DNA of 9,963 nt, from positions 1 through 9,963 of IMG/VR virus record IMGVR_UViG_648276656_000002, one strand, 5' to 3'. Position 1 is the first letter of the stretch. Each line of letters begins with the position of its first letter. Made by a program: the position numbers and the translations under genes. This stretch comes from a virus (lineage: Duplodnaviria > Heunggongvirae > Uroviricota > Caudoviricetes). The notes below the pieces were generated by a model. The model saw only the letters and a program-made list of their open reading frames with translations. It was not told the DNA's origin and ran no database searches. Shown in pieces: positions 1 through 9,963 of the stretch.

Positions 1-309
1 CGCAAGGCAGAACGAATCGACTATGAATCCTTCCTGAACGCCTACAACACCGAAGTCGGTGACAGACTGCCACACGCTGTTGCGGTCAACGAGAAACGCA
101 AACGTCGCCTGAAGAAAATCATTCCGCAACTGAAAACGCCAAACGTGGACGGTTTCAGAGCGTATGTCAGGGCGTTTGTGCATCAGGCCAAGCCGTTTTA
201 CTTCGGAGACAACGACACTGGCTGGACGGCAGATTTTGATTACCTGCTGAGGGAAGATTCGTTAACGGGAGTACGGGAAGGGAAGTTTGCAGACAGGGGG
301 ATTGCATGA
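1..309 (+). CDS. Replication initiation protein (O-like), C-terminal fragment; 5' end lies outside the window
   Basis: Frame 1 is open from the window edge to TGA 307-309. The stop overlaps the helicase ATG (ATGA at 306-309), the coupled initiator/helicase arrangement of P22-like replication modules. Identity rests on position and general character only. Confidence 0.5.
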
Positions 310-1682
310 GACAGGATATCGAAGCGAGCGTTATCGGTGGCTTGCTGATTGGTGGATTAACACCAACCGCCAGCGACGTTCTGGCAACGCTGGAGCCGGA
401 AGCGTTTTCAATTCCGCTCTACCGGAAAGCCTTCGAAGTTATCCGCAAGCAGGCGAGAAACAGAAACCTAATCGACGCGCTGATGGTTGCCGAGGCGTGC
501 GGAGAGGAGCATTTCACGTCAATCCTGATGACCAGCAAAAACTGCCCGAGTGCCGCAAACCTGAAGGGATATGCCGGAATGGTCGCGGATAACTATCACC
601 GCCGTCTGGTGCTGGAAATCATGGATGAAATGCGTGAACCAATTCAGAGCGGAACCATCGACGCATCGAGTCAGGCGATGGATGAGCTTGTAAAGCGTCT
701 TTCAGCCATCAGAAAGCCCCGTGACGAGGTTAAACCGGTACGGTTAGGGGAAATCATCACCGACTACACTGACACGCTTGACAGGCGTCTGAGGAACGGA
801 GAAGAGTCAGATACCCTGAAGACCGGAATCGAAGAACTTGATGCCATCACCGGAGGGATGAACGCGGAAGACCTGGTGATAATCGCTGCTCGTCCTGGTA
901 TGGGGAAAACCGAACTGGCGCTGAAGATTGCCGAAGGCGTTGCAAGCCGCGTTATTCCTGGTTCTGACGTCCGGCGCGGAGTGTTGATTTTCTCGATGGA
1001 AATGAGCGCATTGCAGATTGCAGAGCGAAGCATTGCCAACGCCGGGAGGATGTCGGTTAGCGTACTGCGAAATCCTGCATCGATGGATGACGAAGGCTGG
1101 GCGCGTGTTGCTAACGGCATGAGTCAGCTTGCAGATTTGGATGTATGGGTAGTCGATGCCTCGCGGTTATCGGTAGAAGAAATTCGCTCAATCGCAGAGC
1201 GGCACAAACAGGAAAATCCAAACCTGTCACTCATCATGGCGGATTATCTTGGCCTGATTGAGAAGCCGAAAGCAGACCGCAACGACCTCGCAATTGCTCA
1301 CATCTCAGGAAGCCTGAAGGCGATGGCGAAAGACCTGAAAACGCCAGTTATATCCCTAAGTCAGCTTTCGCGCGATGTTGAGAAGCGACCAAATAAACGC
1401 CCGACAAACGCAGATTTGCGTGATTCAGGAAGCATTGAACAGGACGCAGACTCAATCATCATGCTCTATCGGGAAGCGGTATATGACGAGAACAGTAGCG
1501 CCGCGCCATTTGCTGAAATCATTGTGACGAAAAACCGTTTTGGCTCGCTTGGTACGGTTTACCAGCGGTTCTGCAACGGACACTTTGTTGCATGTGACCA
1601 GGATGAAGCCAGACAGATTTGCACAGCATCAAATGCACCTGCTGCGCGTGGCAGACGATATGCACAAGGGGCTGACGTATGA
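306..1682 (+). CDS. DnaB-family replicative DNA helicase (phage P22 gene 12-like)
   Basis: 458-aa ORF with Walker A ARPGMGKT at nt 888-911 and a DnaB-like N-terminal region. Shine-Dalgarno AGGGGG at 294-299. Stop overlaps the next ORF start (ATGA 1679-1682). Confidence 0.9.
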
Positions 1683-1762
1683 CCATCTACATCACTGAGC
1701 TGATAGCAGGCCTGCTGGTAATCGCAGGCCTTTTTATTTGGGGGAGGGTAAATCGTGGCTGA
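1679..1762 (+). CDS. Small hydrophobic peptide, 27 aa ([27 protein letters not shown]), hypothetical
   Basis: ATG overlaps the helicase stop (ATGA). One predicted transmembrane helix followed by a basic tail. Below the ORF-track length cutoff; found by manual reading. Confidence 0.3.
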
Positions 1763-1961
1763 GTTAATTTTCTCTGCATTGAGGATTCTCGGTGCTATGT
1801 GGATGGTGGCGACGTTCATTGTTGTTGCCAGCAGTTTTGTCCGGTTGGTAGGCGAAGGTAAAGACCTGGTGGGTGTGCTTTTCGGTAGCATTTTCCTGTG
1901 GGTGATTATCGGTGTTATGCCTGTTGTCGTAGCAAAAGTGGCGTGGCGTTTTGTGAGTTGA
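1755..1961 (+). CDS. Small membrane protein, 68 aa, two predicted transmembrane helices, hypothetical
   Basis: GTG start at 1755 preceded by GGGAGG at 1741-1746 with 8-nt spacing. Overlaps the 27-aa ORF by 8 nt. Strongly hydrophobic with two roughly 20-residue apolar segments. Confidence 0.5.
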   Translation: MAELIFSALRILGAMWMVATFIVVASSFVRLVGEGKDLVGVLFGSIFLWVIIGVMPVVVAKVAWRFVS

Positions 1962-1968
1962 GGTAACG

Positions 1969-2415
1969 ATGAAGCAAATATACATGCTTCGCAACGAAGC
2001 AATCAGAAATAACGCCATAGACGCAATACTCTCACTTCCCATCGACGACAAGTCACCTCATGAAGTCCACGTTAGAGAACCCAAACGCAGCAAAGCGCAG
2101 AATGACCGTATGTGGCCGATGCTGAACGATGTTTCGCGTCAGGTGCTATGGCATGGTCAACGGCTGGCGCCGGAAGACTGGAAAGACCTGTTCACTGCCC
2201 TGTGGCTTAAGACCAAAAAACTGGAGCAACGAAGTGTGCCTGGTATCGATGGTGGCGTTGTCATGCTTGGCGTGCGTACCAGCAAAATGCGAAAGGCCAG
2301 CATGACTGAGCTTATCGAAATCATGTTCTGGTTCGGCTCAGAGCGCAACGTGCGATGGAGTGATGACTCCCGGCGAGAGTATGAATGGTCACAACGAAAA
2401 GGGAAGGCTGCATGA
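1969..2415 (+). CDS. ninB: NinB (Orf-family recombination mediator)
   Basis: 148 aa. Motifs NDRMWPMLNDVSRQV and WHGQRL match the lambda NinB/Orf family as I remember it. GAGG ribosome-binding site directly upstream. Stop overlaps the next start (ATGA 2412-2415). Confidence 0.9.
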   Translation: MKQIYMLRNEAIRNNAIDAILSLPIDDKSPHEVHVREPKRSKAQNDRMWPMLNDVSRQVLWHGQRLAPEDWKDLFTALWLKTKKLEQRSVPGIDGGVVMLGVRTSKMRKASMTELIEIMFWFGSERNVRWSDDSRREYEWSQRKGKAA

Positions 2416-2939
2416 CTATCAAATCAAATACGCCAGCACACGACAAGGACTGCTGGCAAACGCCGCTTTGGCTTTTTGATGCACTGGATATTGAGTTTGG
2501 ATTCTGGCTGGATTCGGCAGCGAGCGACAAAAATGCTCTGTGTGCTCACTGGCTAACTGAGGCCGACGACGCGCTCAATTCTGAGTGGGTAAGCCACGGT
2601 GCAATCTGGAATAACCCACCGTACAGCAATATCAGGCCGTGGGTGGAAAAAGCCGCTGAGCAGTGCATACAACAACGACAGACGGTAGTGATGCTTGTGC
2701 CAGAGGATATGTCTGTCGGATGGTTCAGCAAGGCTCTGGAGAGTGTTGACGAAGTTCGCATCATCACTGATGGACGGATTAATTTTATCGAACCATCGAC
2801 AGGGCTGGAGAAGAAGGGAAACAGCAAAGGCTCAATGCTGCTGATTTGGCGACCGTTCATCAGTCCTCGACGGATGTTTACCACCGTATCCAAAGCGGCA
2901 TTGATGGCGATCGGGCAGGGCGTCAGGAGGGCTGCATGA
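2412..2939 (+). CDS. Phage Dam-family DNA N6-adenine methyltransferase (orphan)
   Basis: Catalytic NPPY motif within IWNNPPYSN, and N-terminal CWQTPLWLF typical of the small phage N6-adenine methyltransferase family. Start chosen at ATG 2412 (ATGA coupling with ninB) rather than the in-frame ATG at 2385. No adjacent restriction endonuclease gene. Confidence 0.85.
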
Positions 2940-3118
2940 GACGACAGCGACGAAGTATCACCGACATCATCTGCGAAAACTGCAAATACCTTCCAACGAA
3001 ACGCTCCAGAAATAAACGCAAGCCAATCCCAAAAGAATCTGACGTAAAAACCTTCAACTACACGGCTCACCTGTGGGATATCCGGTGGCTAAGACATCGT
3101 GCGAGGAATACAAGGTGA
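2936..3118 (+). CDS. ninE: NinE
   Basis: 60-aa ORF starting [23 protein letters not shown], matching lambda NinE from memory. ATG 2936 overlaps the methyltransferase stop. The ORF track gives a longer upstream in-frame extension that I regard as an artefact. Confidence 0.8.
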
Positions 3119-3285
3119 TTGACCCAAATCGAAGTTACGAACAAGAAAGCGTCGAGCGGGCTTTAACGTGCGCTAACTGCGGTCAGAAGCTGCATGTGCT
3201 GGAAGTTCACGTGTGCGCCGATTGCTGCGCAGAACTGATGAGCGATCCGAATAGCTCAATGTACGAGGAAGAAGACGATGAATGA
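3115..3285 (+). CDS. ninF: NinF
   Basis: Core sequence [47 protein letters not shown] matches lambda NinF from memory. Start proposed at GTG 3115 (GTGA overlap with the ninE stop, GAGG at 3103-3106). The ORF-track start at 3073 is also GTG and would add 14 residues with no counterpart. Confidence 0.75.
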
Positions 3286-4000
3286 GTTAATAAATGGCAA
3301 TGCCATCAAAATGACAAGCATTGAAATCGCTGAGTTGGTGGGAAGTCGTCCAGATAACGTAAAAATATCAATAGAGCGCCTGGCTAAATCTGGAGTTATT
3401 CAACTTCCTGCATTGCAGGTTTTCGAAAAAATCAATAACTTAGGACTGCGCCGTAGTGTCGAGGCTTACGTCTTCGAAGGCGAACAAGGTAAGCGCGACA
3501 GCATTATTGTCGTTGCCCAGTTGTCGCCGGAATTCACCGCTCGCCTTGTTGACCGTTGGCGAGAGCTTGAAGAAGCTGCGGTTAATATCCCCAAAACGTT
3601 ACCGGAAGCGTTGCGCCTTGCTGCTGATCTTGCTGAGCAGAAAATGCAACTGGAAAACCAGCTCGCAATTGCCGCACCTAAAGTTGAGTTTGCCGATCGC
3701 GTTGGCGAGGCCAGCGGAATTTTGATTGGAAACTTTGCAAAGGTTGTCGGTATTGGTCCAAACAAACTGTTTGCGTGGATGCGCGATCACAAAATCCTTA
3801 TTGCTTCAGGTTCCCGGCGCAATGTGCCAATGCAGGAATATATGGATCTCGGCTATTTCACAGTGAAAGAAACAGCGGTCAACACAAATCACGGAATACA
3901 GATATCGTTCACCACAAAAATCACCGGGCGTGGTCAACAGTGGCTGACCAGAAAGCTGCTCGATAACGGAATGCTGAAAGTAACAGGGGAGGCTGCTTAA
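3278..4000 (+). CDS. Phage antirepressor-like protein (N-terminal Rha/AntA-like DNA-binding region, C-terminal KilAC/ANT-type domain)
   Basis: 240 aa. N-terminus TSIEIAELVGSRPDNVKISIERL resembles the HTH signature of Rha/antirepressor N-domains. C-terminus (KVVGIGPNKLFAWMRDHKIL ... QEYMDLGYFTVKE ... GRGQQWL) resembles the KilAC domain. GAGG 3265-3268 precedes ATG 3278; an alternative start is ATG 3311. Confidence 0.7.
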   Translation: MNELINGNAIKMTSIEIAELVGSRPDNVKISIERLAKSGVIQLPALQVFEKINNLGLRRSVEAYVFEGEQGKRDSIIVVAQLSPEFTARLVDRWRELEEAAVNIPKTLPEALRLAADLAEQKMQLENQLAIAAPKVEFADRVGEASGILIGNFAKVVGIGPNKLFAWMRDHKILIASGSRRNVPMQEYMDLGYFTVKETAVNTNHGIQISFTTKITGRGQQWLTRKLLDNGMLKVTGEAA

Positions 4001-4290
4001 TGGCTAATCTACGCAAAGAAGCACGCGGCAGAGAATGCCAGGTACGTATTTACGGCGTATGCAATGGTAATCCTGAAACTACAGTTCTGGCACATTACCG
4101 GATGGCTGGAATTTGCGGAACGGGAATGAAGCCTGACGACCTGATCGGCGCATGGGCTTGTAGCGCGTGTCACGATGAAATCGACCGACGCACCCATAAT
4201 CTCGACAACAAAGACGCCAGACTTTACCACCTCGAAGGCGTGATCAGGACGCAGGCGATACTACTGAAGGAGGGGAAGATTAAGCCATGA
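4000..4290 (+). CDS. ybcO: YbcO-like DUF1364 protein (putative metal-binding nuclease)
   Basis: 96 aa. MANLRKEARGRECQVRIYGVCNGNPETTVLAH ... CSACHDEIDRR matches E. coli DLP12 YbcO from memory. Cys/His cluster present. TAATG start overlap with the preceding gene and ATGA overlap with rusA. Confidence 0.8.
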   Translation: MANLRKEARGRECQVRIYGVCNGNPETTVLAHYRMAGICGTGMKPDDLIGAWACSACHDEIDRRTHNLDNKDARLYHLEGVIRTQAILLKEGKIKP

Positions 4291-4649
4291 ACGAATATCA
4301 GTTTGTGCTTCCATACCCGCCGTCGGTGAATACCTACTGGCGAAGACGGGGAAGCCAATACTACATCAGCGATAAAGGCCAGAAATACCGAAAAGACGTT
4401 CAGCAAATCATCCGCCAACTTAAGTTAGACATTTTCACCAAATCACGACTCCGCATCAAAGTAATCGCAGACGTTCCGGACTCCCGCCGCCGCGACCTCG
4501 ACAACATCCTGAAAGGTTTACTCGACTCCCTTATCCACGCCGGATTTGCGGAAGACGACGAGCAATTCGATGACATTCGCGTAATTCGTGGTGTGAAAGT
4601 ACCAGGTGGAAGGCTTGGAATAAAAATCACCGAACTGGAGAACGCATGA
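4287..4649 (+). CDS. rusA: RusA-family Holliday junction resolvase
   Basis: 120 aa, the same length as E. coli RusA. Contains the DSRRRDLDNILKGLLDSL motif with catalytic Asp residues in the family's RRRDLDN context. Located directly after ybcO as in DLP12-type prophages. Confidence 0.9.
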   Translation: MNEYQFVLPYPPSVNTYWRRRGSQYYISDKGQKYRKDVQQIIRQLKLDIFTKSRLRIKVIADVPDSRRRDLDNILKGLLDSLIHAGFAEDDEQFDDIRVIRGVKVPGGRLGIKITELENA

Positions 4650-4834
4650 ACGCCACAATTCAAACGATACCAGAGCTTCTTATCCAGACACGAGGCAATC
4701 AGACCGAAGTGGCAAGGATGCTTTCCTGCGCAAGAGGAACAGTGCTCAAGTACAACCGAGACAGCAAAGGCGAGCGTCACGTAATAGTTAACGGCGTCCT
4801 GATGGTCAAACAGGGCAAAAGGGGAAGGCCATGA
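4646..4834 (+). CDS. ninH: NinH-like small DNA-binding protein
   Basis: 62 aa. GNQTEVARMLSCARGTVLKY ... VIVNGVLMV matches the lambda NinH HTH region from memory. ATGA overlaps at both ends (4646-4649 and 4831-4834). Confidence 0.75.
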   Translation: MNATIQTIPELLIQTRGNQTEVARMLSCARGTVLKYNRDSKGERHVIVNGVLMVKQGKRGRP

Positions 4835-5454
4835 GACTCGAAAGCGTAGCTAAATTTCATTCGCCAAAAAGCCCGATGATGAGCGACTCACCACGGGCTA
4901 CGGCTTCTGACTCTCTTTCCGGTACTGATGTGATGGCTGCTATGGGGATGGCGCAATCACAAGCCGGATTCGGAATGGCTGCATTCTGCGGTAAGCATGA
5001 ACTCAGCCAGAACGACAAACAAAAGGCTATCAACTATCTGATGCAATTTGCACACAAGGTATCGGGGAAATACCGTGGCGTTGCAAAGCTTGAAGGAAAT
5101 ACTAAGGCAAAGGTACTGCAAGTACTCGCAACATTCGCTTATGCGGATTATTGCCGTAGTGCCGCGACGCCGGGCGCAAGATGCAGAGATTGCCACGGTA
5201 CAGGTCGTGCGGTTGATATAGCAAAAACAGAGCAGTGGGGGAGAGTTGTTGAGAAAGAGTGCGGAAGATGCAAAGGCGTCGGTTATTCAAGGATGCCAGC
5301 AAGCGCCGCATATCGCGCTGTAACGATGCTAATCCCCAACCTTACCCAACCCACCTGGTCACGCACTGTTAAGCCGCTGTATGACGCTCTGGTGGTGCAA
5401 TGTCACAAAGAAGAGTCAATCGCAGACAACATTTTGAATGCGGTCACACGTTAG
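4831..5454 (+). CDS. Q: Late-gene antiterminator Q (lambda-type)
   Basis: 207 aa. The whole sequence (MRLESVAKFHSPKSPMMSDSPRATASD ... zinc-binding CRDCHGTGR ... CGRCKG) matches lambda Q as I remember it. Followed by a lambda-like PR'/qut. Confidence 0.95.
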   Translation: MRLESVAKFHSPKSPMMSDSPRATASDSLSGTDVMAAMGMAQSQAGFGMAAFCGKHELSQNDKQKAINYLMQFAHKVSGKYRGVAKLEGNTKAKVLQVLATFAYADYCRSAATPGARCRDCHGTGRAVDIAKTEQWGRVVEKECGRCKGVGYSRMPASAAYRAVTMLIPNLTQPTWSRTVKPLYDALVVQCHKEESIADNILNAVTR

Positions 5455-5496
5455 CAGCATGATTGCCACGGATGGCAACATATTAACGGCATAATA

Positions 5497-5525
5497 TTGA
5501 CTTTTTGAATAAAGTTGGGTAAATT
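5497..5525 (+). promoter_or_regulatory. Late promoter PR' with overlapping Q-utilisation (qut) site
   Basis: -35 TTGACT at 5497-5502, 17-bp spacer, -10 TAAATT at 5520-5525. Sits 43 bp downstream of the Q stop as in lambda. Near-consensus sigma70 elements. Confidence 0.8.
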
Positions 5526-5531
5526 TGACCC

Positions 5532-5725
5532 AACGATGGGTTAATTCGCTCGTTGTGGTAGTGAGATGAAAAGAGGCGGCGCTTACTACCGATTCCGCCT
5601 AGTTGGTCACTTCGACGTATCGTCTGGAACTCCAACCATCGCAGGCTGAGAGGTCTGCAAAATGCAATCCCGAAACAGTTCGCAGGTAATAGTTAGAGCC
5701 TGCATAACGGTTTCGGGATTTTTTA
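5532..5725 (+). ncRNA. PR' leader transcript (lambda 6S RNA equivalent), ending at tR'
   Basis: Runs from the predicted start about 7 nt downstream of the -10 to the tR' hairpin and U-tract. The sequence closely matches my memory of the lambda 6S region. The 5' end is approximate. Confidence 0.6.
5666..5725 (+). terminator. tR' intrinsic terminator
   Basis: Long-range stem AATCCCGAAAC (5666-5676) pairing with GTTTCGGGATT (5710-5720), with internal structure, followed by a T-run at 5719-5724. Confidence 0.8.
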
Positions 5726-5859
5726 TATCTGTGCAACAGGTAAGAGCATTGAACCCGCAGACCTCGCGGAATTGGTGAAAGGTGCCGCGCAGTGCTCTTA
5801 TCGTTGTGGTGAAGCTCAATGGCGAGCTAGCAGATAGGCGACAGTGAAAATACTAGTCA

Positions 5860-5934
5860 TGTAGCTGACCGCCGCGCGTACTGCAATCGGCAGCGCACCG
5901 ATGGAAGCCGGTTCGATTCCGGCCGCCACAACCC
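5860..5934 (+). other. tRNA-like remnant (canonical T-arm, 5-bp anticodon-like stem, degenerate D-arm, no CCA)
   Basis: T-stem GCCGG (5907-5911), T-loop TTCGATT (5912-5918), T-stem CCGGC (5919-5923); the 11-mer GGTTCGATTCC is the classic T-psi-C signature. Upstream 5-bp stem ATCGG (5886-5890) pairs with CCGAT (5898-5902) but its loop CAGCGCA lacks U33. An acceptor-like pairing 5860-5866 with 5924-5930 gives only 5 of 7 base pairs. Confidence 0.35.
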
Positions 5935-6021
5935 AAACTGAGCCGTAGCCACTGGCTATCCTGAATTCATCAGTGATAGTTACGCTGCTGCCTTCTACAC
6001 ATGATCTTCGTGAAAGCGGGT

Positions 6022-6056
6022 GGCAGGAGGTCGCGCTAACAACCTCCTGCCGTTTT
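6022..6056 (+). other. Perfect 10-bp hairpin upstream of S (possible RNA structure or weak terminator)
   Basis: GGCAGGAGGT (6022-6031) pairs with ACCTCCTGCC (6042-6051) around a 10-nt loop, followed by GTTTT. Confidence 0.35.
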
Positions 6057-6176
6057 GCCCGTGCATATCGGTCACGAACAAATCTGATTACTAAACACAG
6101 TAGCCTGGATTTGTTCTATCAGTAATCGACCTTATTCCTAATTAAATAGAGCAAATCCCCTTATTGGGGGTAAGAC

Positions 6177-6500
6177 ATGAAGATGCCAGAAAAACATGAC
6201 CTGTTAGCCGCGATTCTCGCGGCAAAGGAACAAGGCATCGGGGCAATCCTTGCGTTTGCAATGGCGTACCTTCGCGGCAGATATAATGGCGGTGCGTTTA
6301 CAAAAACAGTAATCGACGCAACGATGTGCGCCATTATCGCCTGGTTCATTCGTGACCTTCTCGACTTCGCTGGACTAAGTAGCAATCTCGCTTATATAAC
6401 GAGCGTGTTCATCGGCTACATCGGTACTGACTCGATTGGTTCGCTTATCAAACGCTTCGCTGCTAAAAAAGCCGGAGTAGAAGATGGTGGAAATCAATAA
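6177..6500 (+). CDS. S: Holin S (class I, dual-start antiholin/holin)
   Basis: 107 aa, [22 protein letters not shown] ..., matching lambda S from memory. The Met1-Lys2-Met3 dual-start motif is present (ATG AAG ATG at 6177-6185). GGGGG ribosome-binding site upstream. Three transmembrane segments. Confidence 0.95.
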
Positions 6501-6960
6501 TCAACGTAAGGCGTTCCTCGATATGCTGGCGTGGTCAGAGGGAACTGATAACGGACGTCAAAAAACCAGAAATCATGGTTATGACGTCATTGTTGGCGGA
6601 GAGCTATTCACTGATTACTCCGATCACCCTCGCAAACTTGTCACGCTAAACCCCAAACTCAAATCAACAGCCGCAGGACGTTACCAGCTTCTTTCCCGTT
6701 GGTGGGATGCCTACCGCAAGCAGCTTGGCCTGAAAGACTTCTCTCCGAAAAGTCAGGACGCTGTGGCATTGCAGCAGATTAAGGAGCGTGGCGCTTTGCC
6801 GATGATTGATCGCGGTGATATCCGTCAGGCAATCGACCGTTGCAGCAATATCTGGGCTTCACTGCCGGGTGCTGGTTATGGCCAGTTCGAGCATAAGGCT
6901 GACAGCCTGATTGCAAAATTCAAAGAAGCAGGCGGAACGGTCAGAGAGGTTGAGGTATGA
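6484..6960 (+). CDS. R: Endolysin R (lambda-type lytic transglycosylase)
   Basis: 158 aa, [35 protein letters not shown] ..., matching lambda R from memory. Start overlaps the S 3' end; stop overlaps the Rz start (ATGA 6957-6960). Confidence 0.95.
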
Positions 6961-7394
6961 GCAGAGTCACCGCGATTATTTCCGCTCTGGTTATCTGCAT
7001 CATCGTCTGCCTGTCATGGGCTGTTAATCATTACCGTGATAACGCCATCGCCTACAAAGAGCAGCGCGACAAAGCCGCATCCATCATCGCTGACATGCAG
7101 AAGCGTCAACGTGATATAGCAGAACTAGACGCCAGATACACAAAGGAGCTTGCTGATGCTAACGCGACTATCGAAAGTCTCCGTGCTGATGTTTCTGCTG
7201 GGCGTAAGCGCCTGCAAGTCGCCGCCACCTGTGCAAAGTCAACGACCGGAGCCAGCAGCATGGGCGATGGAGAAAGCCCAAGACTTACAGCAGATGCTGA
7301 ACTCAATTATTACCGTCTACGAAGCGGAATCGACAGGATAACCGCGCAGGTTAACTACCTGCAGGAGTACATCAGGACTCAGTGCCTGAAATAA
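6957..7394 (+). CDS. Rz: Rz (i-spanin, inner-membrane subunit)
   Basis: 145 aa. The N-terminal transmembrane region [31 protein letters not shown] matches lambda Rz from memory; the periplasmic coiled-coil part diverges from lambda. Confidence 0.9.
7156..7341 (+). CDS. Rz1: Rz1 (o-spanin, outer-membrane lipoprotein) embedded in the +1 frame of Rz
   Basis: ATG 7156 preceded by AAGGAG at 7143-7148. Signal peptide ending in the lipobox-like VSAC with the Cys lipidation site, followed by a proline-rich mature region ([13 protein letters not shown]). The ORF-track start at 7150 is a TTG two codons upstream. Confidence 0.8.
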
Positions 7395-7425
7395 TTTTTT
7401 TGCAAATCACAAAGTCTATTTAATG

Positions 7426-7449
7426 AGCCTCGCGATGCGGGGCTTTTTT
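7426..7449 (+). terminator. Rho-independent terminator downstream of the lysis cassette
   Basis: GC-rich stem GCCTCGC (7427-7433) pairing with GCGGGGC (7437-7443), including one G-U pair, around loop GAT, followed by TTTTTT (7444-7449). Confidence 0.7.
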
Positions 7450-7598
7450 ACATCTGAATTTCACAGCGCATCTCACGCGCATATTACATCACCCGAGCCT
7501 TTCAGAAAGTTGAGCCTGAGAACTGCCGTATATGGTGGCGACCATCTCGGGGCGGCTTTTCTGTGAGACAGGCTCACTTTCTAAAAGGTAAAGACGCT

Positions 7599-8117
7599 AT
7601 GAATCATCAATTGGCTAATCTCGATTTCCGGGACATGGTGGTTGTTTCTGGTGATCGCGTGATCACAACCTCCCGCAAGGTAGCAGCTTACTTCGACAAG
7701 CAGCATCACCACATCATTCAGAAAATCGAAAAGCTAGACTGTTCGGATGAATTTCTAACCAGCAACTTTTCGCGGGTTACCTATGAACACAAGGGTAATC
7801 AGTATGTTGAATATGAAATTTCCAAAGACGGTGCGATGTACATCATCATGTCGTTTACCGGCAAAAAAGCTGCCGCCATCAAAGAGGCGTTTATCAAAGC
7901 ATTTAATTGGATGCGTGACAGGCTGATGGAGATGGCTCACTCATACCAAAGAGAGCACAACGAGTTAATGCTGGAGTTCATGAAGGAAAAGGATGTTGCC
8001 AGTATGTCAGGACGCTTGCTGAACCGCTGGGGCAGGATCAAAAAACCGCAACTCATAGCAAGAATCAAAAGGCTTGAGCAGCAGGCGCAAATATCGATCC
8101 CCGGACTGCCAAAGTGA
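7599..8117 (+). CDS. rha: Rha-family phage regulatory protein
   Basis: Start chosen at ATG 7599 (AAGG ribosome-binding site upstream); the ORF-track start at 7563 is GTG. Rha-family signature: VVVSGDRVITTSRKVAAYFDKQHHHIIQKIEKL ... MSFTGKKAAAIKEAFIKAFNWM. Position between lysis genes and terminase as in P22. Confidence 0.8.
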   Translation: MNHQLANLDFRDMVVVSGDRVITTSRKVAAYFDKQHHHIIQKIEKLDCSDEFLTSNFSRVTYEHKGNQYVEYEISKDGAMYIIMSFTGKKAAAIKEAFIKAFNWMRDRLMEMAHSYQREHNELMLEFMKEKDVASMSGRLLNRWGRIKKPQLIARIKRLEQQAQISIPGLPK

Positions 8118-8210
8118 CCATTCCAAAGCCCATCTACGGGTGGGCTTGATAATGAAACCGTGATTTACATCCCCACAATCCGGGTATGTAAAAGATAGTT
8201 CAGGCGAGAA

Positions 8211-8228
8211 CAGATTTAACTAAATCTG
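8211..8228. repeat. Perfect 8-bp inverted repeat with 2-bp spacer (CAGATTTA-AC-TAAATCTG)
   Basis: Read directly from the sequence; lies in the 350-bp non-coding region between rha and the 80-aa ORF. Confidence 0.5.
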
Positions 8229-8469
8229 TGCACCACCAGTTACGGCAGTACCACGAAGCAACCCAAGCCAGTAAGTGGGGAAATAACACTGGCAGCCACT
8301 GAAAGATGAACCTCCAGCCTTATGGCAAAAAAGATTCTTTGTGGTGGCGGACTGATGGAAAGACATCGGTTATTGCAGAGGCCATTCAATGAGTGGTCTC
8401 GACAATGGCTTATACCCTGCACGGGATAACTTAACTGATATCCCTTTTAACGGATAAACGGAGCCAACA

Positions 8470-8712
8470 ATGGCAGAGATTATTCCCATGACTGAAGAAC
8501 AGAAATTCCAGCTAGAGATTTACAAACTGGTCATGAACCAGAACGCAGCAGCAGAGGAAGCATTTCAGTTCATTGGTACTGACGAGCTGAAGCTTGAGCT
8601 ATTCAAAATTCACTTCCAGTCAGGCGGCGCTAATTCGGATATCACGACCCGCACTATCGAAGCGGTGCGTAAATCGAAGGAAGCGTTAGACCTGTTCACT
8701 ACCGGAGCATAA
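8470..8712 (+). CDS. Hypothetical protein, 80 aa (orf80-like ORF preceding the small terminase)
   Basis: ATG 8470 preceded by GGAG at 8460-8463. Acidic, predicted helical, no recognisable motif. Conserved position upstream of terS in P22-like phages as I recall. Confidence 0.55.
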   Translation: MAEIIPMTEEQKFQLEIYKLVMNQNAAAEEAFQFIGTDELKLELFKIHFQSGGANSDITTRTIEAVRKSKEALDLFTTGA

Positions 8713-8791
8713 ACATGGCAACTCAAGGTTTCGACAACCCATCCAAATTCCGCGATGAATGGGATAAGCAAGCAGAAGGGAAATAATCAAT

Positions 8792-9217
8792 ATGGCGACT
8801 GAGAAAAAGAACGTCGGTCGCCCTTCGGATTACCTGCCGGAGGTGGCTGATGATATCTGTGCGCTGCTTGCCTCCGGGGAAAGTCTGGTTAAGGTTTGCA
8901 AGCGCCCCGGCATGCCAGCAAAGGCTACTGTATTTCGCTGGCTGTCAGAGCATGACGAATTTAGAGACAAGTACGCGAAGGCAACTGAGGCACGAGCTGA
9001 TTCTATTTTCGAAGAGATATTCGAAATTGCTGACAATGCGATTCCAGATGCTGCTGAGGTGGCAAAGGCAAGACTTCGCGTTGATACCCGCAAATGGGCG
9101 CTGGCCCGAATGAATCCACGTAAGTATGGCGACAAGGTAACTAATGAGCTTGTCGGCAAAGACGGCGGCGCAATCCAGATTGAAACATCACCGATGAGCA
9201 CTCTATTCGGAAAATGA
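8792..9217 (+). CDS. Terminase small subunit (Sf6 gp1-like)
   Basis: 141 aa. N-terminal HTH-like region [43 protein letters not shown], then a conserved helical core [17 protein letters not shown] ... [16 protein letters not shown]. Stop overlaps the large-subunit start (ATGA 9214-9217). Confidence 0.85.
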
Positions 9218-9936
9218 CCTCGATTAATCCTATCTTTGAACCGTTCATTGAGGCGCATCGCTACAAAGTCGCCAAAGGCGGTCGAGGTAGCGGTAAATCA
9301 TGGGCAATTGCGAGGCTGCTTGTTGAAGCGGCGCGTCGGCAGCCGGTGCGCATCCTCTGTGCTCGTGAACTGCAAAACAGTATCAGTGATTCGGTAATCC
9401 GGCTGCTTGAAGATACCATCGAGCGTGAAGGGTATTCAGCTGAGTTTGAAATTCAGCGTTCAATGATTCGTCATCTCGGAACGAATGCTGAATTCATGTT
9501 CTACGGCATCAAAAACAACCCGACGAAGATTAAATCGCTCGAAGGTATTGATATCTGCTGGGTGGAAGAAGCGGAAGCGGTAACGAAGGAATCATGGGAT
9601 ATCCTGATCCCAACCATCCGCAAGCCATTTTCCGAAATATGGGTGAGCTTCAACCCGAAAAACATCCTCGACGATACCTATCAGCGATTCGTAGTAAACC
9701 CTCCCGATGATATTTGTCTGCTGACGGTGAACTACACCGACAACCCGCACTTTCCTGAAGTTCTCCGTCTGGAGATGGAAGAGTGTAAACGCAGAAACCC
9801 GACACTGTATCGTCACATCTGGCTTGGTGAGCCAGTAAGCGCAAGTGATATGGCAATCATCAAACGTGAATGGCTTGAAGCTGCAACTGATGCGCACAAG
9901 CAACTCGGATGGAAAGCGAAGGGTGCGGTTGTTTGA
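9214..9936 (+). CDS. Terminase large subunit, N-terminal ATPase domain only (apparently truncated at codon 240)
   Basis: Walker A GGRGSGKS at nt 9277-9300, Walker B-like DICWVEEAE, and an SFNP coupling-type motif. The ORF ends at TGA 9934-9936 with no nuclease domain. Confidence 0.85.
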
Positions 9937-9963
9937 AGTGGTCAACAAAAACTGGCCACCGAG
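9934..9963. mobile_element. Possible terminal inverted repeat of an IS3-family insertion sequence (IS911-like); continues beyond the window
   Basis: The terminase frame stops exactly where the sequence becomes TGAAGTGGTCAACAAAAACTGGCCACCGAG, which begins with the 5'-TG typical of IS3-family ends and resembles my recollection of an IS911 end. Recollection only; unverified. Confidence 0.3.

Follow-up and report, generated by a model that had tools for sequence, protein, structure and literature searches.

A covariation-supported, tRNA-like RNA element in the late and N leaders of lambdoid phages

Location and architecture of the element

The stretch of DNA analysed in this work, referred to below as the window, comprises 9,963 nucleotides (nt) of a virus of the class Caudoviricetes (IMG/VR record IMGVR_UViG_648276656_000002, positions 1 to 9,963) and covers a lambdoid late-control and lysis region. 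Our analyses have identified in this window an element of 130 nt (5803-5932, + strand), located between the terminator tR' and the holin gene S, which folds as a cloverleaf resembling transfer RNA (tRNA) and whose variable helices are maintained by compensatory substitutions. An earlier note, made from the letters of this DNA, had marked part of the same interval (5860-5934) as a degenerate tRNA-like element and had suggested that it could be a tRNA in decay that marks an earlier or alternative site for cargo. The locus comprises the following features:

4831-5454: Q gene
5497-5525: pR'-like promoter
5667-5726 (+): tR' terminator, a hairpin with a T-run, which is the left boundary of a variable cassette and is identical in phages lambda, E212, mEp506 and Kapi1
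5803-5932 (+): the element
6177-6500: holin gene S, followed by the endolysin gene R and by Rz

The consensus structure of the element (RNAalifold, 64 variants) consists of five helices, viz. an acceptor-like stem, a D-arm, a long extra arm, a hairpin referred to here as hairpin 2, and a T-arm. Its parts in the window are:

5803-5811 (+): 5' strand of the acceptor-like stem, GTTGTGGTG, with a universal core of 7 base pairs (bp) at 5805-5811 and 2 outer bp that are usually paired
5812-5813 (+): AA connector, corresponding to tRNA nucleotides 8-9, invariant in 42 variants
5814-5827 (+): D-arm, GCTC-AATGGC-GAGC, 100% paired, with the GG of the tRNA D-loop invariant
5830-5884 (+): long extra arm, consisting of stem P3, an internal loop and helix P4, with the palindrome ACTAGT at its tip
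5830-5833 (+): 5' strand of P3, GCAG, pairing with 5881-5884; the anticodon stem of the Rfam tRNA model
5834-5836 (+): internal-loop ATA, nearly invariant
5837-5873 (+): P4 long arm, GGCG-a-CAGT, apical loop, GCTG-ac-CGCC, which other variants form as an uninterrupted helix of 10 bp
5852-5857 (+): apical hexamer ACTAGT, self-complementary, a candidate kissing-loop dimerisation site
5874-5880 (+): unpaired GCGCGTA (bulge or internal loop), nearly invariant
5881-5884 (+): 3' strand of P3, CTGC, covarying with 5830-5833
5886-5902 (+): hairpin 2, ATCGG-CAGCGCA-CCGAT, the anticodon arm of the earlier note and the long variable arm in the Rfam tRNA alignment
5903-5906 (+): GGAA connector, GGRA in all variants
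5907-5923 (+): T-arm, GCCGG-TTCGATT-CCGGC, with the loop TTCGAYT invariant
5924-5932 (+): 3' strand of the acceptor-like stem, CGCCACAAC, directly 3' of the T-stem and followed by CCA (5933-5935)

The two strands of the acceptor-like stem, GTTGTGGTG and CGCCACAAC, pair at 9 of 9 positions with one G-U pair, which lies in the 7-bp core (TGTGGTG 5805-5811 with CGCCACA 5924-5930), and the stem covaries among variants. The D- and T-arms are likewise tRNA-like, the GG and TTCGA motifs being invariant in 42 variants, and the D-stem is practically unvarying (one C-G to U-G change). The loop of hairpin 2 has the consensus YWNCGCA.

These boundaries bear directly on the earlier note, which had recognised the canonical T-arm (GCCGG 5907-5911, TTCGATT 5912-5918, CCGGC 5919-5923) and a 5-bp anticodon-like stem (ATCGG 5886-5890 with CCGAT 5898-5902) closing a 7-nt loop without U33 (CAGCGCA); both hairpins are real. 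It had also regarded the 11-mer GGTTCGATTCC (5910-5920) as unlikely by chance, and this sequence is indeed the sole match in the window even when one mismatch is allowed (0.17 in shuffles), with an exact-match expectation of about 0.005 by simple arithmetic; the motif is tRNA-derived or tRNA-like. What did not stand followed from an interval that was drawn too narrowly, since it starts within the apical loop of the extra arm and covers only the 3' 55% of the element, with the 5' half located 57 nt upstream. The supposedly degenerate D-arm (5867-5885) is the 3' half of the extra arm, the true D-arm being that at 5814-5827; the supposed acceptor strand with 5 of 7 pairs (5860-5866) lies within the extra arm, the true stem being fully paired; and the reported lack of CCA is a boundary artefact, CCA being present after the 9-bp stem though not conserved in the family.

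Covariation and distribution of the element

The structure was assessed in a curated alignment (A4) of 42 distinct variants, to which the variant counts below refer, by counting pairs against an explicit structure of 40 pairs. In this alignment 96.2% of the cells are paired, compared with 83.6% in shuffles and 32-47% in slid controls; 23 of the 40 pairs show changes on both sides, and the covariation score is 0.364 as against 0.147 for shuffles (0 of 500 reach the observed value) and 0.035-0.093 for slid controls. Covariation is present in every helix that varies. Compensatory changes are found in five of the nine acceptor pairs (pair 2, for example, is U-A, G-C or A-U, and pair 7 is G-C or A-U) and in three of the five T-stem pairs, while nine of the ten pairs of P4 show double changes. 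Stem P3 occurs in the alternative forms GCA/TGC, GGG/CCC and AGTGT/ACACT, and the stem of hairpin 2 as ATCGG/CCGAT, ATCAG/CTGAT, ATTGG/CCAAT and ATAGG/CCTAT. The maintenance of these helices by compensatory substitutions reflects purifying selection on RNA structure, not decay, and the + strand is identified as the RNA because its frequent G-U pairs would become A-C mismatches if the other strand were the RNA. No open reading frame extends across the element on either strand, and its alignment contains single-base insertions and deletions. Several unpaired motifs (viz. ATA, GCGCGTA, the loop CGCA, and GGAA) are nearly invariant, which implies a specific tertiary fold or a specific partner. A pseudoknot between the GCGCG bulge and the GCGC of the hairpin-2 loop would join two such segments; both are nearly invariant, and the few variants that bear on it (L053, BIS08P22 and L077) show no covariation.

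The apical loop of P4 (14-20 nt) contains, at one aligned position, a hexamer that is self-complementary in 42 of 42 variants. Seven forms of this hexamer are found (viz. ACTAGT, TCTAGA, GCTAGC, TCGCGA, ACCGGT, TCCGGA, and TCTGGA), the last of which (UCUGGA) is self-complementary only with G-U pairs, i.e. only as RNA. The palindromic loop suggests, from its sequence, that two copies of the RNA could form a kissing-loop homodimer. A CTAG-CTAG pseudoknot of 5827-5830 with the apical loop was considered and rejected, the hexamer becoming TCGCGA, ACCGGT or TCCGGA while the 5' GAGCTAG remains fixed. An intermolecular kissing homodimer is the simplest explanation because adjacent bases cannot pair intramolecularly and the upstream CTAG shows no covariation with the hexamer. 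Retroviral dimerisation sites form such loop-loop homodimers, and that of human immunodeficiency virus type 1 resembles the present element in having a 6-nt palindrome, in a purine-flanked hairpin loop, that varies between lineages yet remains palindromic. It belongs, however, to another organism, RNA and context, and dimerisation is a candidate property here.

Blastn searches with 5790-5940 identified the element in 92 GenBank phage records. The sequence is 99-100% identical in HK75 and a few Escherichia coli phages, 94-96% identical in Salmonella siphophages of the Skate, seszw, Akira and INT55 type, where the genomic context is wholly different, and 81%, 79% and 73% identical in gmqsjt-1, Pantoea phage PdC23 and the P22-like phage BIS08P22, respectively. 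It is also carried by 340 of 5426 complete E. coli genomes (~6%), with no RefSeq annotation under the match, and a divergent-subtype query matched 161 E. coli genomes (E <= 1e-10), mostly at 60-80% identity, again unannotated and in part belonging to the first set. Two pattern scans of IMG/VR yielded more than 100 contigs and about 70 distinct variants; a third viral scan, keyed on GAGCTAG...GCGCGTA, gave no new variants. When genome contigs were scanned with a loose gapped pattern, one of the 120 matches listed was real (Superficieibacter electus) and the rest were chance. All confirmed copies with a recorded host or source come from Enterobacterales or their phages, the IMG/VR contigs carrying no host information and the taxonomic range being poorly sampled by a genome scan of 120 listed loci. 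The element, which is intergenic in seszw, is retained in all matched genome-reduced mutants of that phage (MZ3752xx-MZ3753xx; down to 35,993 bp). The CRISPR genome-reduction study that produced them targeted only coding sequences, and this retention thus says little on essentiality.

Genomic contexts and cassette boundaries

The genomic context of the element was surveyed at 123 loci, and it is always co-oriented with transcription. At 62 loci it lies between a co-oriented Q gene and a holin gene, involving four Q families (phrog_943, phrog_127, phrog_753 and the lambda type) and at least three holin families (lambda S, phrog_198 and phrog_217), and at 18 loci between cI and an N-like antiterminator gene; untranslated leaders host it at 80 of the 123 loci. 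Three settings can be distinguished, viz. the late leader of pR', the leader of pL, with the element between nutL and N, and a position upstream of tRNAs in a separate RNA operon.

The pL setting is exemplified by BIS08P22, where a promoter-like sequence (TTGAAA-16-TATACT) is followed by a boxB-like hairpin (AGGCTGAAAAGCCT), the element, AGGAGG, and the start of N, 19 nt after the element. At no fewer than nine loci the element ends ~20 nt before the N start with a Shine-Dalgarno (SD) sequence in between, and in further variants the SD sequence follows it directly. In the N-leader copies, CTTTGG/CCAAAG lengthens the basal stem to ~15 bp with a bulged A. The CTTTGG 5' of the acceptor has a second potential partner, an upstream CCAAAG with which it forms a local hairpin (locus L008, 1483-1498 and 1633-1638; also L200, L014 and L139); judging from the sequence, this alternative pairing may represent a structural switch or an RNase III-sized helix beside the N ribosome-binding site.

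In the Skate-like phages the protein genes on either side are encoded by the opposite strand, and the order is two promoter-like sites, a P0-like hairpin (see below), the element, a spacer of ~100 nt, tRNA-Ile/Met, and a terminator-like hairpin, with an additional tRNA-Arg in gmqsjt-1. This arrangement is, as predicted from its signals, a dedicated RNA operon. The tRNA that follows the element in Skate (L011, 1744-1820) and gmqsjt-1 (L007, 1746-1822) is assigned by ARAGORN to tRNA-Ile with AAT as anticodon, an unusual one in bacteria, and its ortholog in Akira (L009, 1744-1820) has anticodon CAT. Another RNA neighbour is found in the late leader of the Stx-like Escherichia phage PhiR5_2 (L010, 1792-2470), where three tandem copies of STnc100, an Rfam small RNA family, lie directly downstream of the element (138.7, 30 and 129.9 bits).

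A gene for an HNH endonuclease (phrog_99) is located within 2.5 kb at 23 of the 123 loci (e.g. L088, L019 and L069), and homing endonuclease genes are also found near the Skate-type, BIS08P22 and PdC23 copies (L268, 1-433; L009, 2394-2885; L008, 2090-2590). The recurrence of such neighbours in phages that are not otherwise related, which recalls segB in the T4 tRNA cluster, provides a possible route of cassette movement, and by this analogy the endonucleases may explain the horizontal spread of the cassette.

In the window and its relatives, the interval between Q and S consists of a variable middle between two conserved flanks (257 matching phage records). An alignment of the window with lambda, E212, mEp506 and Kapi1 shows that likeness collapses directly 3' of tR' and that all five sequences realign from AACTGAGCCGTAGCC (window 5936 onward), although past tR' E212, and less closely lambda, stay alignable with the window for ~85 more bases, to ~5813. 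The earlier note had described this interval as a slot for tRNA cargo, and this is correct. The stretch from tR' to the lysis genes holds ileZ-argN-argO in Shiga toxin (Stx) phages; in mEp506 and Kapi1 it is occupied by an intact tRNA-Asn(GTT) and tRNA-Thr(TGT) that end at the same junction AACTGAGCCGTAGCC; Sf6 has Asn/Thr and phage L has Asn/Leu tRNAs in this slot, the phage L paper placing the tRNAs of L and Sf6 at the 5' end of the late operon. This cargo shares with the element the tR'-to-lysis-gene slot and, in mEp506 and Kapi1, the right-hand junction, but differs in consisting of canonical tRNAs of 75-77 nt that are called by ARAGORN.

In lambda (L002, 1848-1936; lambda 44857-44945) and E212 (L001, 1849-1972) the slot holds unrelated fillers that keep the 9-bp closing stem. 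In the lambda stem, GTTGTGCTG/CAGCACAAC, there is a compensatory change of G:C to C:G, and the filler of E212 adopts the same five-helix junction, with loops that are not of the tRNA type. The lambda tR'-S spacer may contain a reduced relative of this RNA. As detectable homologs the two fillers were rejected, our family covariance model (R1) giving only 11.6 and 14.9 bits, which derive from the shared closing stem.

Two further hairpins flank the element in the window:

5742-5799 (+): upstream hairpin P0, AAGAGCATTG...CAGTGCTCTT, with a 10-bp stem common to lambda and Skate and differing interiors
6022-6059: strong GC hairpin followed by TTTTG (GGCAGGAGGT...AACCTCCTGCCGTTTTGCC), in the conserved leader between cassette and S and shared with lambda

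The interior of P0 (38-55 nt) is wholly different between the window, lambda and Skate (L011, ~1431-1512); its folding z-score is -3.3, and it may belong with the element to one RNA cassette. In the window (5792-5799) and its homologs, the 5' flank TGCTCTT(A/T) of the element doubles as the 3' strand of the P0 stem, and we take it to resemble the boxA consensus of nut sites and rrn leaders. The hairpin at 6022-6059 looks, from its sequence, like an intrinsic terminator within the Q-antiterminated leader.

Relationship to known RNAs and possible function

The likeness of the element to tRNA is partial. ARAGORN in default mode finds no tRNA in the window and none in the 42 variants, and in intron mode calls three of the 42 as tRNA-Arg with inconsistent models. 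A relaxed run of the kind that the earlier note had proposed (-ps80) returns tRNA-Arg(gcg) at 5860-5933, which carries little weight because spurious reverse-strand calls appear as well. The Rfam tRNA model (RF00005) scores 37.4 bits on the PdC23 copy, above its gathering score of 29, and this is the sole copy that passes; in that alignment P3 is the anticodon stem, a 45-nt insert replaces its loop and hairpin 2 is the long variable arm, as in a class II tRNA. In an alternative layout, hairpin 2 would serve as a normal anticodon arm, the 4-nt GGAA would be the variable loop, and P3-P4 would form an insertion at the junction of D- and anticodon arms. Model R1, in turn, gives weak matches to genuine tRNAs. 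The anticodon-like loop has A33 and C37 in nearly all variants, with U33 only in L144. The 7-bp stem is followed by A, C or T and then by the triplet CCC, CAC, TCA or ACA; all E. coli tRNA genes encode the 3' CCA. An encoded CCA read after the 9-bp stem, as in the window, was also considered and rejected as a family feature, A-CCA being present in some lineages and unconserved across the family. The element is not a decoding tRNA, because it has no U33, R37, conserved discriminator or conserved CCA.

Among known RNAs, the class II tRNAs (Ser, Leu and Sec; RF00005) share with the element the 7-bp acceptor core, the two-nucleotide connector, the 4-bp D-stem with a GG loop, the T-arm with TTCGAYT, and a further hairpin, which follows the position of the anticodon stem and precedes the T-arm. 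The element differs from them in its length of 130 nt, in the replacement of the anticodon loop by an internal loop, a helix of up to 10 bp and a 14-20 nt apical loop, in AA at positions 8-9 (A rather than U at 8), in a stem that is usually at least 9 bp long, and in lacking a conserved discriminator or CCA. The tRNA-like domain of transfer-messenger RNA (tmRNA) likewise has an acceptor and T-arm and a long helix leaving from the anticodon-arm position, but the element has a true D-arm and neither a tag reading frame nor a series of pseudoknots. A search of window 5400-6250 against Rfam 15 (cmscan, E <= 10) gave only sub-threshold tmRNA matches, with no tRNA match listed and with one lower-scoring overlapping match of the same clan (<20.2 bits) outside the list. 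The best of these concerns the 3' T-arm and acceptor, aligning 59 nt and skipping 316 model positions, and ARAGORN in tmRNA mode (-m) finds none.

A precedent for the mechanism proposed below is the bacterial Y RNA YrlA, a non-coding RNA that, like the element, has a size of ~100-130 nt and a tRNA-like domain with conserved D- and T-arms that mimic tRNA. YrlA is modified by tRNA enzymes, and that of Mycobacterium smegmatis is cut by RNase P because of its 7-bp acceptor (Chen et al., 2014; PMC4201824). In contrast to the element, YrlA is circularly permuted, ends in a Ro60-binding stem, has a loop-closed "acceptor" and is encoded beside rsr (PMC4201824). The ends of the element form the acceptor stem, its neighbours are Q, holin, N, cI and tRNA genes and not Ro60, and no Rfam Y RNA matches the window at E <= 10. 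The T4 species 1 and 2 RNAs (rnaC, 139 nt, and rnaD, 119 nt) are also small stable RNAs without an assigned function, encoded beside phage tRNA genes and the homing endonuclease gene segB, and rnaC ends in a T-arm (CCGGG-TTCGAAT-CCCGG). Homology to them was rejected: R1 scores 14.1 bits on rnaC (E = 0.04), over the T-arm only and below its scores on real tRNAs, and at most 5.9 bits on rnaD, for short fragments the size of a T-arm or hairpin. No description of the element was found in the literature; a 2023 catalogue of viral structured RNAs with ~10,000 unnamed candidates (PMC10690425) could include it.

On this evidence we interpret 5803-5932 (+), with moderate confidence, as a functional tRNA-mimic RNA of an undescribed family and not as a tRNA gene or its remnant. 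The absence of decoding features leads us to view it either as a mimic, i.e. a decoy or binding partner of a factor that recognises tRNA, or as a processing or stability module acting in cis. In the mechanism that we propose, the element would be transcribed as part of the leaders and its RNA would adopt an L-shape by contact of D-loop and T-loop at the elbow. The stack of acceptor and T-arm, together with the D/T elbow, would be recognised by tRNA-handling enzymes of the host, the acceptor stem being cleaved by RNase P, with RNase III as an alternative where the basal stem reaches ~15 bp, and processing would free a stable RNA and/or set the 5' end of the downstream message. Two copies could then pair through the palindromic loop to form a homodimer. 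The N leader of lambda contains an RNase III hairpin, and RNase III cleavage at the long basal stem might functionally replace it. Processing by the host is to be expected because the stack and elbow are intact and YrlA provides a precedent (PMC4201824).

A number of points weigh against this interpretation. The best Rfam match on the window is tmRNA (RF00023; 20.2 bits, with a gathering score of 47), and the window copy does not stand out in its folding energy (z = -1.8). RNase P may be hindered by the stem, which as a rule is 2 bp longer than a tRNA acceptor and in N-leader copies reaches up to ~15 bp. Most variants were harvested by patterns that fix conserved motifs, and the conservation of those motifs is thus partly by construction; the first IMG/VR harvest fixed D-stem positions 1 and 5 and the hairpin-2 stem, and the second the 3' strand of the D-stem, while the remaining helices scored for covariation were not fixed and the covariation of hairpin 2 comes from second-harvest variants. 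As the sequences are related, the shuffle statistics overstate significance; the slid controls are fairer and still separate cleanly. Hairpin 2 and the motifs ATA, GCGCGTA, CGCA and GGAA are nearly invariant, which places tertiary contacts beyond the reach of covariation. Expression, processing and dimerisation are predicted from sequence, and the data do not distinguish a decoy role in trans from a processing role in cis.

The most serious alternative, to which we assign a clearly lower, though appreciable, likelihood, is that the element acts purely in cis, its tRNA-like domain being a processing, stability or translation-control module of the leader, analogous to the lambda N-leader RNase III hairpin, with no product in trans. 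The spacing before N at nine or more loci with the SD sequence in between, the variants that directly precede an SD sequence, the location of 80 of the 123 loci in untranslated leaders, and the alternative local partner of the CTTTGG/CCAAAG basal stem, which hints at a switch, are all in accord with this proposal. It fits less well with the Skate-like copies, which precede a tRNA and whose flanking protein genes are on the opposite strand, or with the window copy, which is 245 nt upstream of S, and neither an invariant hairpin-2 loop nor conserved bulges nor a covarying palindromic loop would be required at a site that served for processing alone.

The functional tRNA-mimic reading that we prefer can be extended to a specific, more speculative form, which we put forward only tentatively and consider rather unlikely to hold in all its parts. 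In this form, a homodimerising phage-borne tRNA mimic would be excised from the early (pL) or late (pR') leaders by host tRNA-processing enzymes, would work in trans, as a decoy for, or inhibitor of, some host factor recognising the shape of tRNA, and would move as a mobile cassette between unrelated phages, possibly with HNH homing endonucleases. Conceivable targets include immune nucleases or toxins directed against tRNA and enzymes that process or modify tRNA.

It is highly improbable that the element is a genuine non-canonical tRNA (with a class II or intron-like insert, Arg- or Ser-like) that is aminoacylated and used in translation. The RF00005 score of the PdC23 copy, the three intron-mode tRNA-Arg calls, one depositor's annotation of part of the element as tRNA-Ser, the GCG or UCG at the anticodon position of the hairpin-2 loop in the variants examined and the single variant with U33 would agree with such a role; A33 and C37 nearly everywhere, A rather than U at position 8, a discriminator that is A, C or T, a CCA that is unconserved in the 7-bp or 9-bp register, the lack of any default ARAGORN call and a class II reading that leaves no anticodon loop all contradict it, and we know of no bacterial mechanism for removing a 45-55 nt insert of this kind. 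We give equally little credence to a purely DNA-level element, i.e. a target of recombination or of a homing endonuclease, a site resembling att or a palindrome bound by protein, with no RNA function. Nuclease genes near 23 of the 123 loci and near the seszw, Akira, BIS08P22 and PdC23 copies, the conserved sequences that bound the cassette in mosaic genomes, and the fact that the hexamers are DNA palindromes are compatible with it; the covariation, however, obeys RNA pairing with frequent strand-specific G-U pairs, the TCTGGA hexamer is self-complementary only as RNA, the orientation relative to transcription is constant, and a DNA-binding dimer would not tolerate seven different palindromes. 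Weakest of all is the decayed tRNA pseudogene of the earlier note, which shares its slot with the intact tRNAs of relatives, lacks U33 and is called by ARAGORN in relaxed mode only, but is contradicted by compensatory changes in every variable helix (96.2% paired, 32-47% in slid controls), by conservation at 73-95% identity across unrelated phage types and differing genomic positions, by the conserved and covarying extra arm, and by the intact D-arm, T-arm and acceptor stem.

The lambdoid phages are among the best-studied genetic systems, yet neither RefSeq nor the GenBank phage records nor Rfam annotate this covariation-supported structured RNA of their N and late leaders. Should it prove to be a processed tRNA mimic, it would extend the short list of such bacterial and phage RNAs, which comprises tmRNA, YrlA and the T4 species 1 and 2 RNAs, and the predicted dimerisation would be an unusual feature. 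Covariance model R1 could correct the annotation of hundreds of prophages. In two E. coli phages a "polyubiquitin-A" coding sequence is wrongly placed over the element (ON470589.1, 20004-20154; ON470594.1, 21081-21231), and in Salmonella phage vB_CECAV_048 (PQ186186.1, 21833-21890) part of it is mis-annotated as a truncated "tRNA-Ser" of 58 nt.

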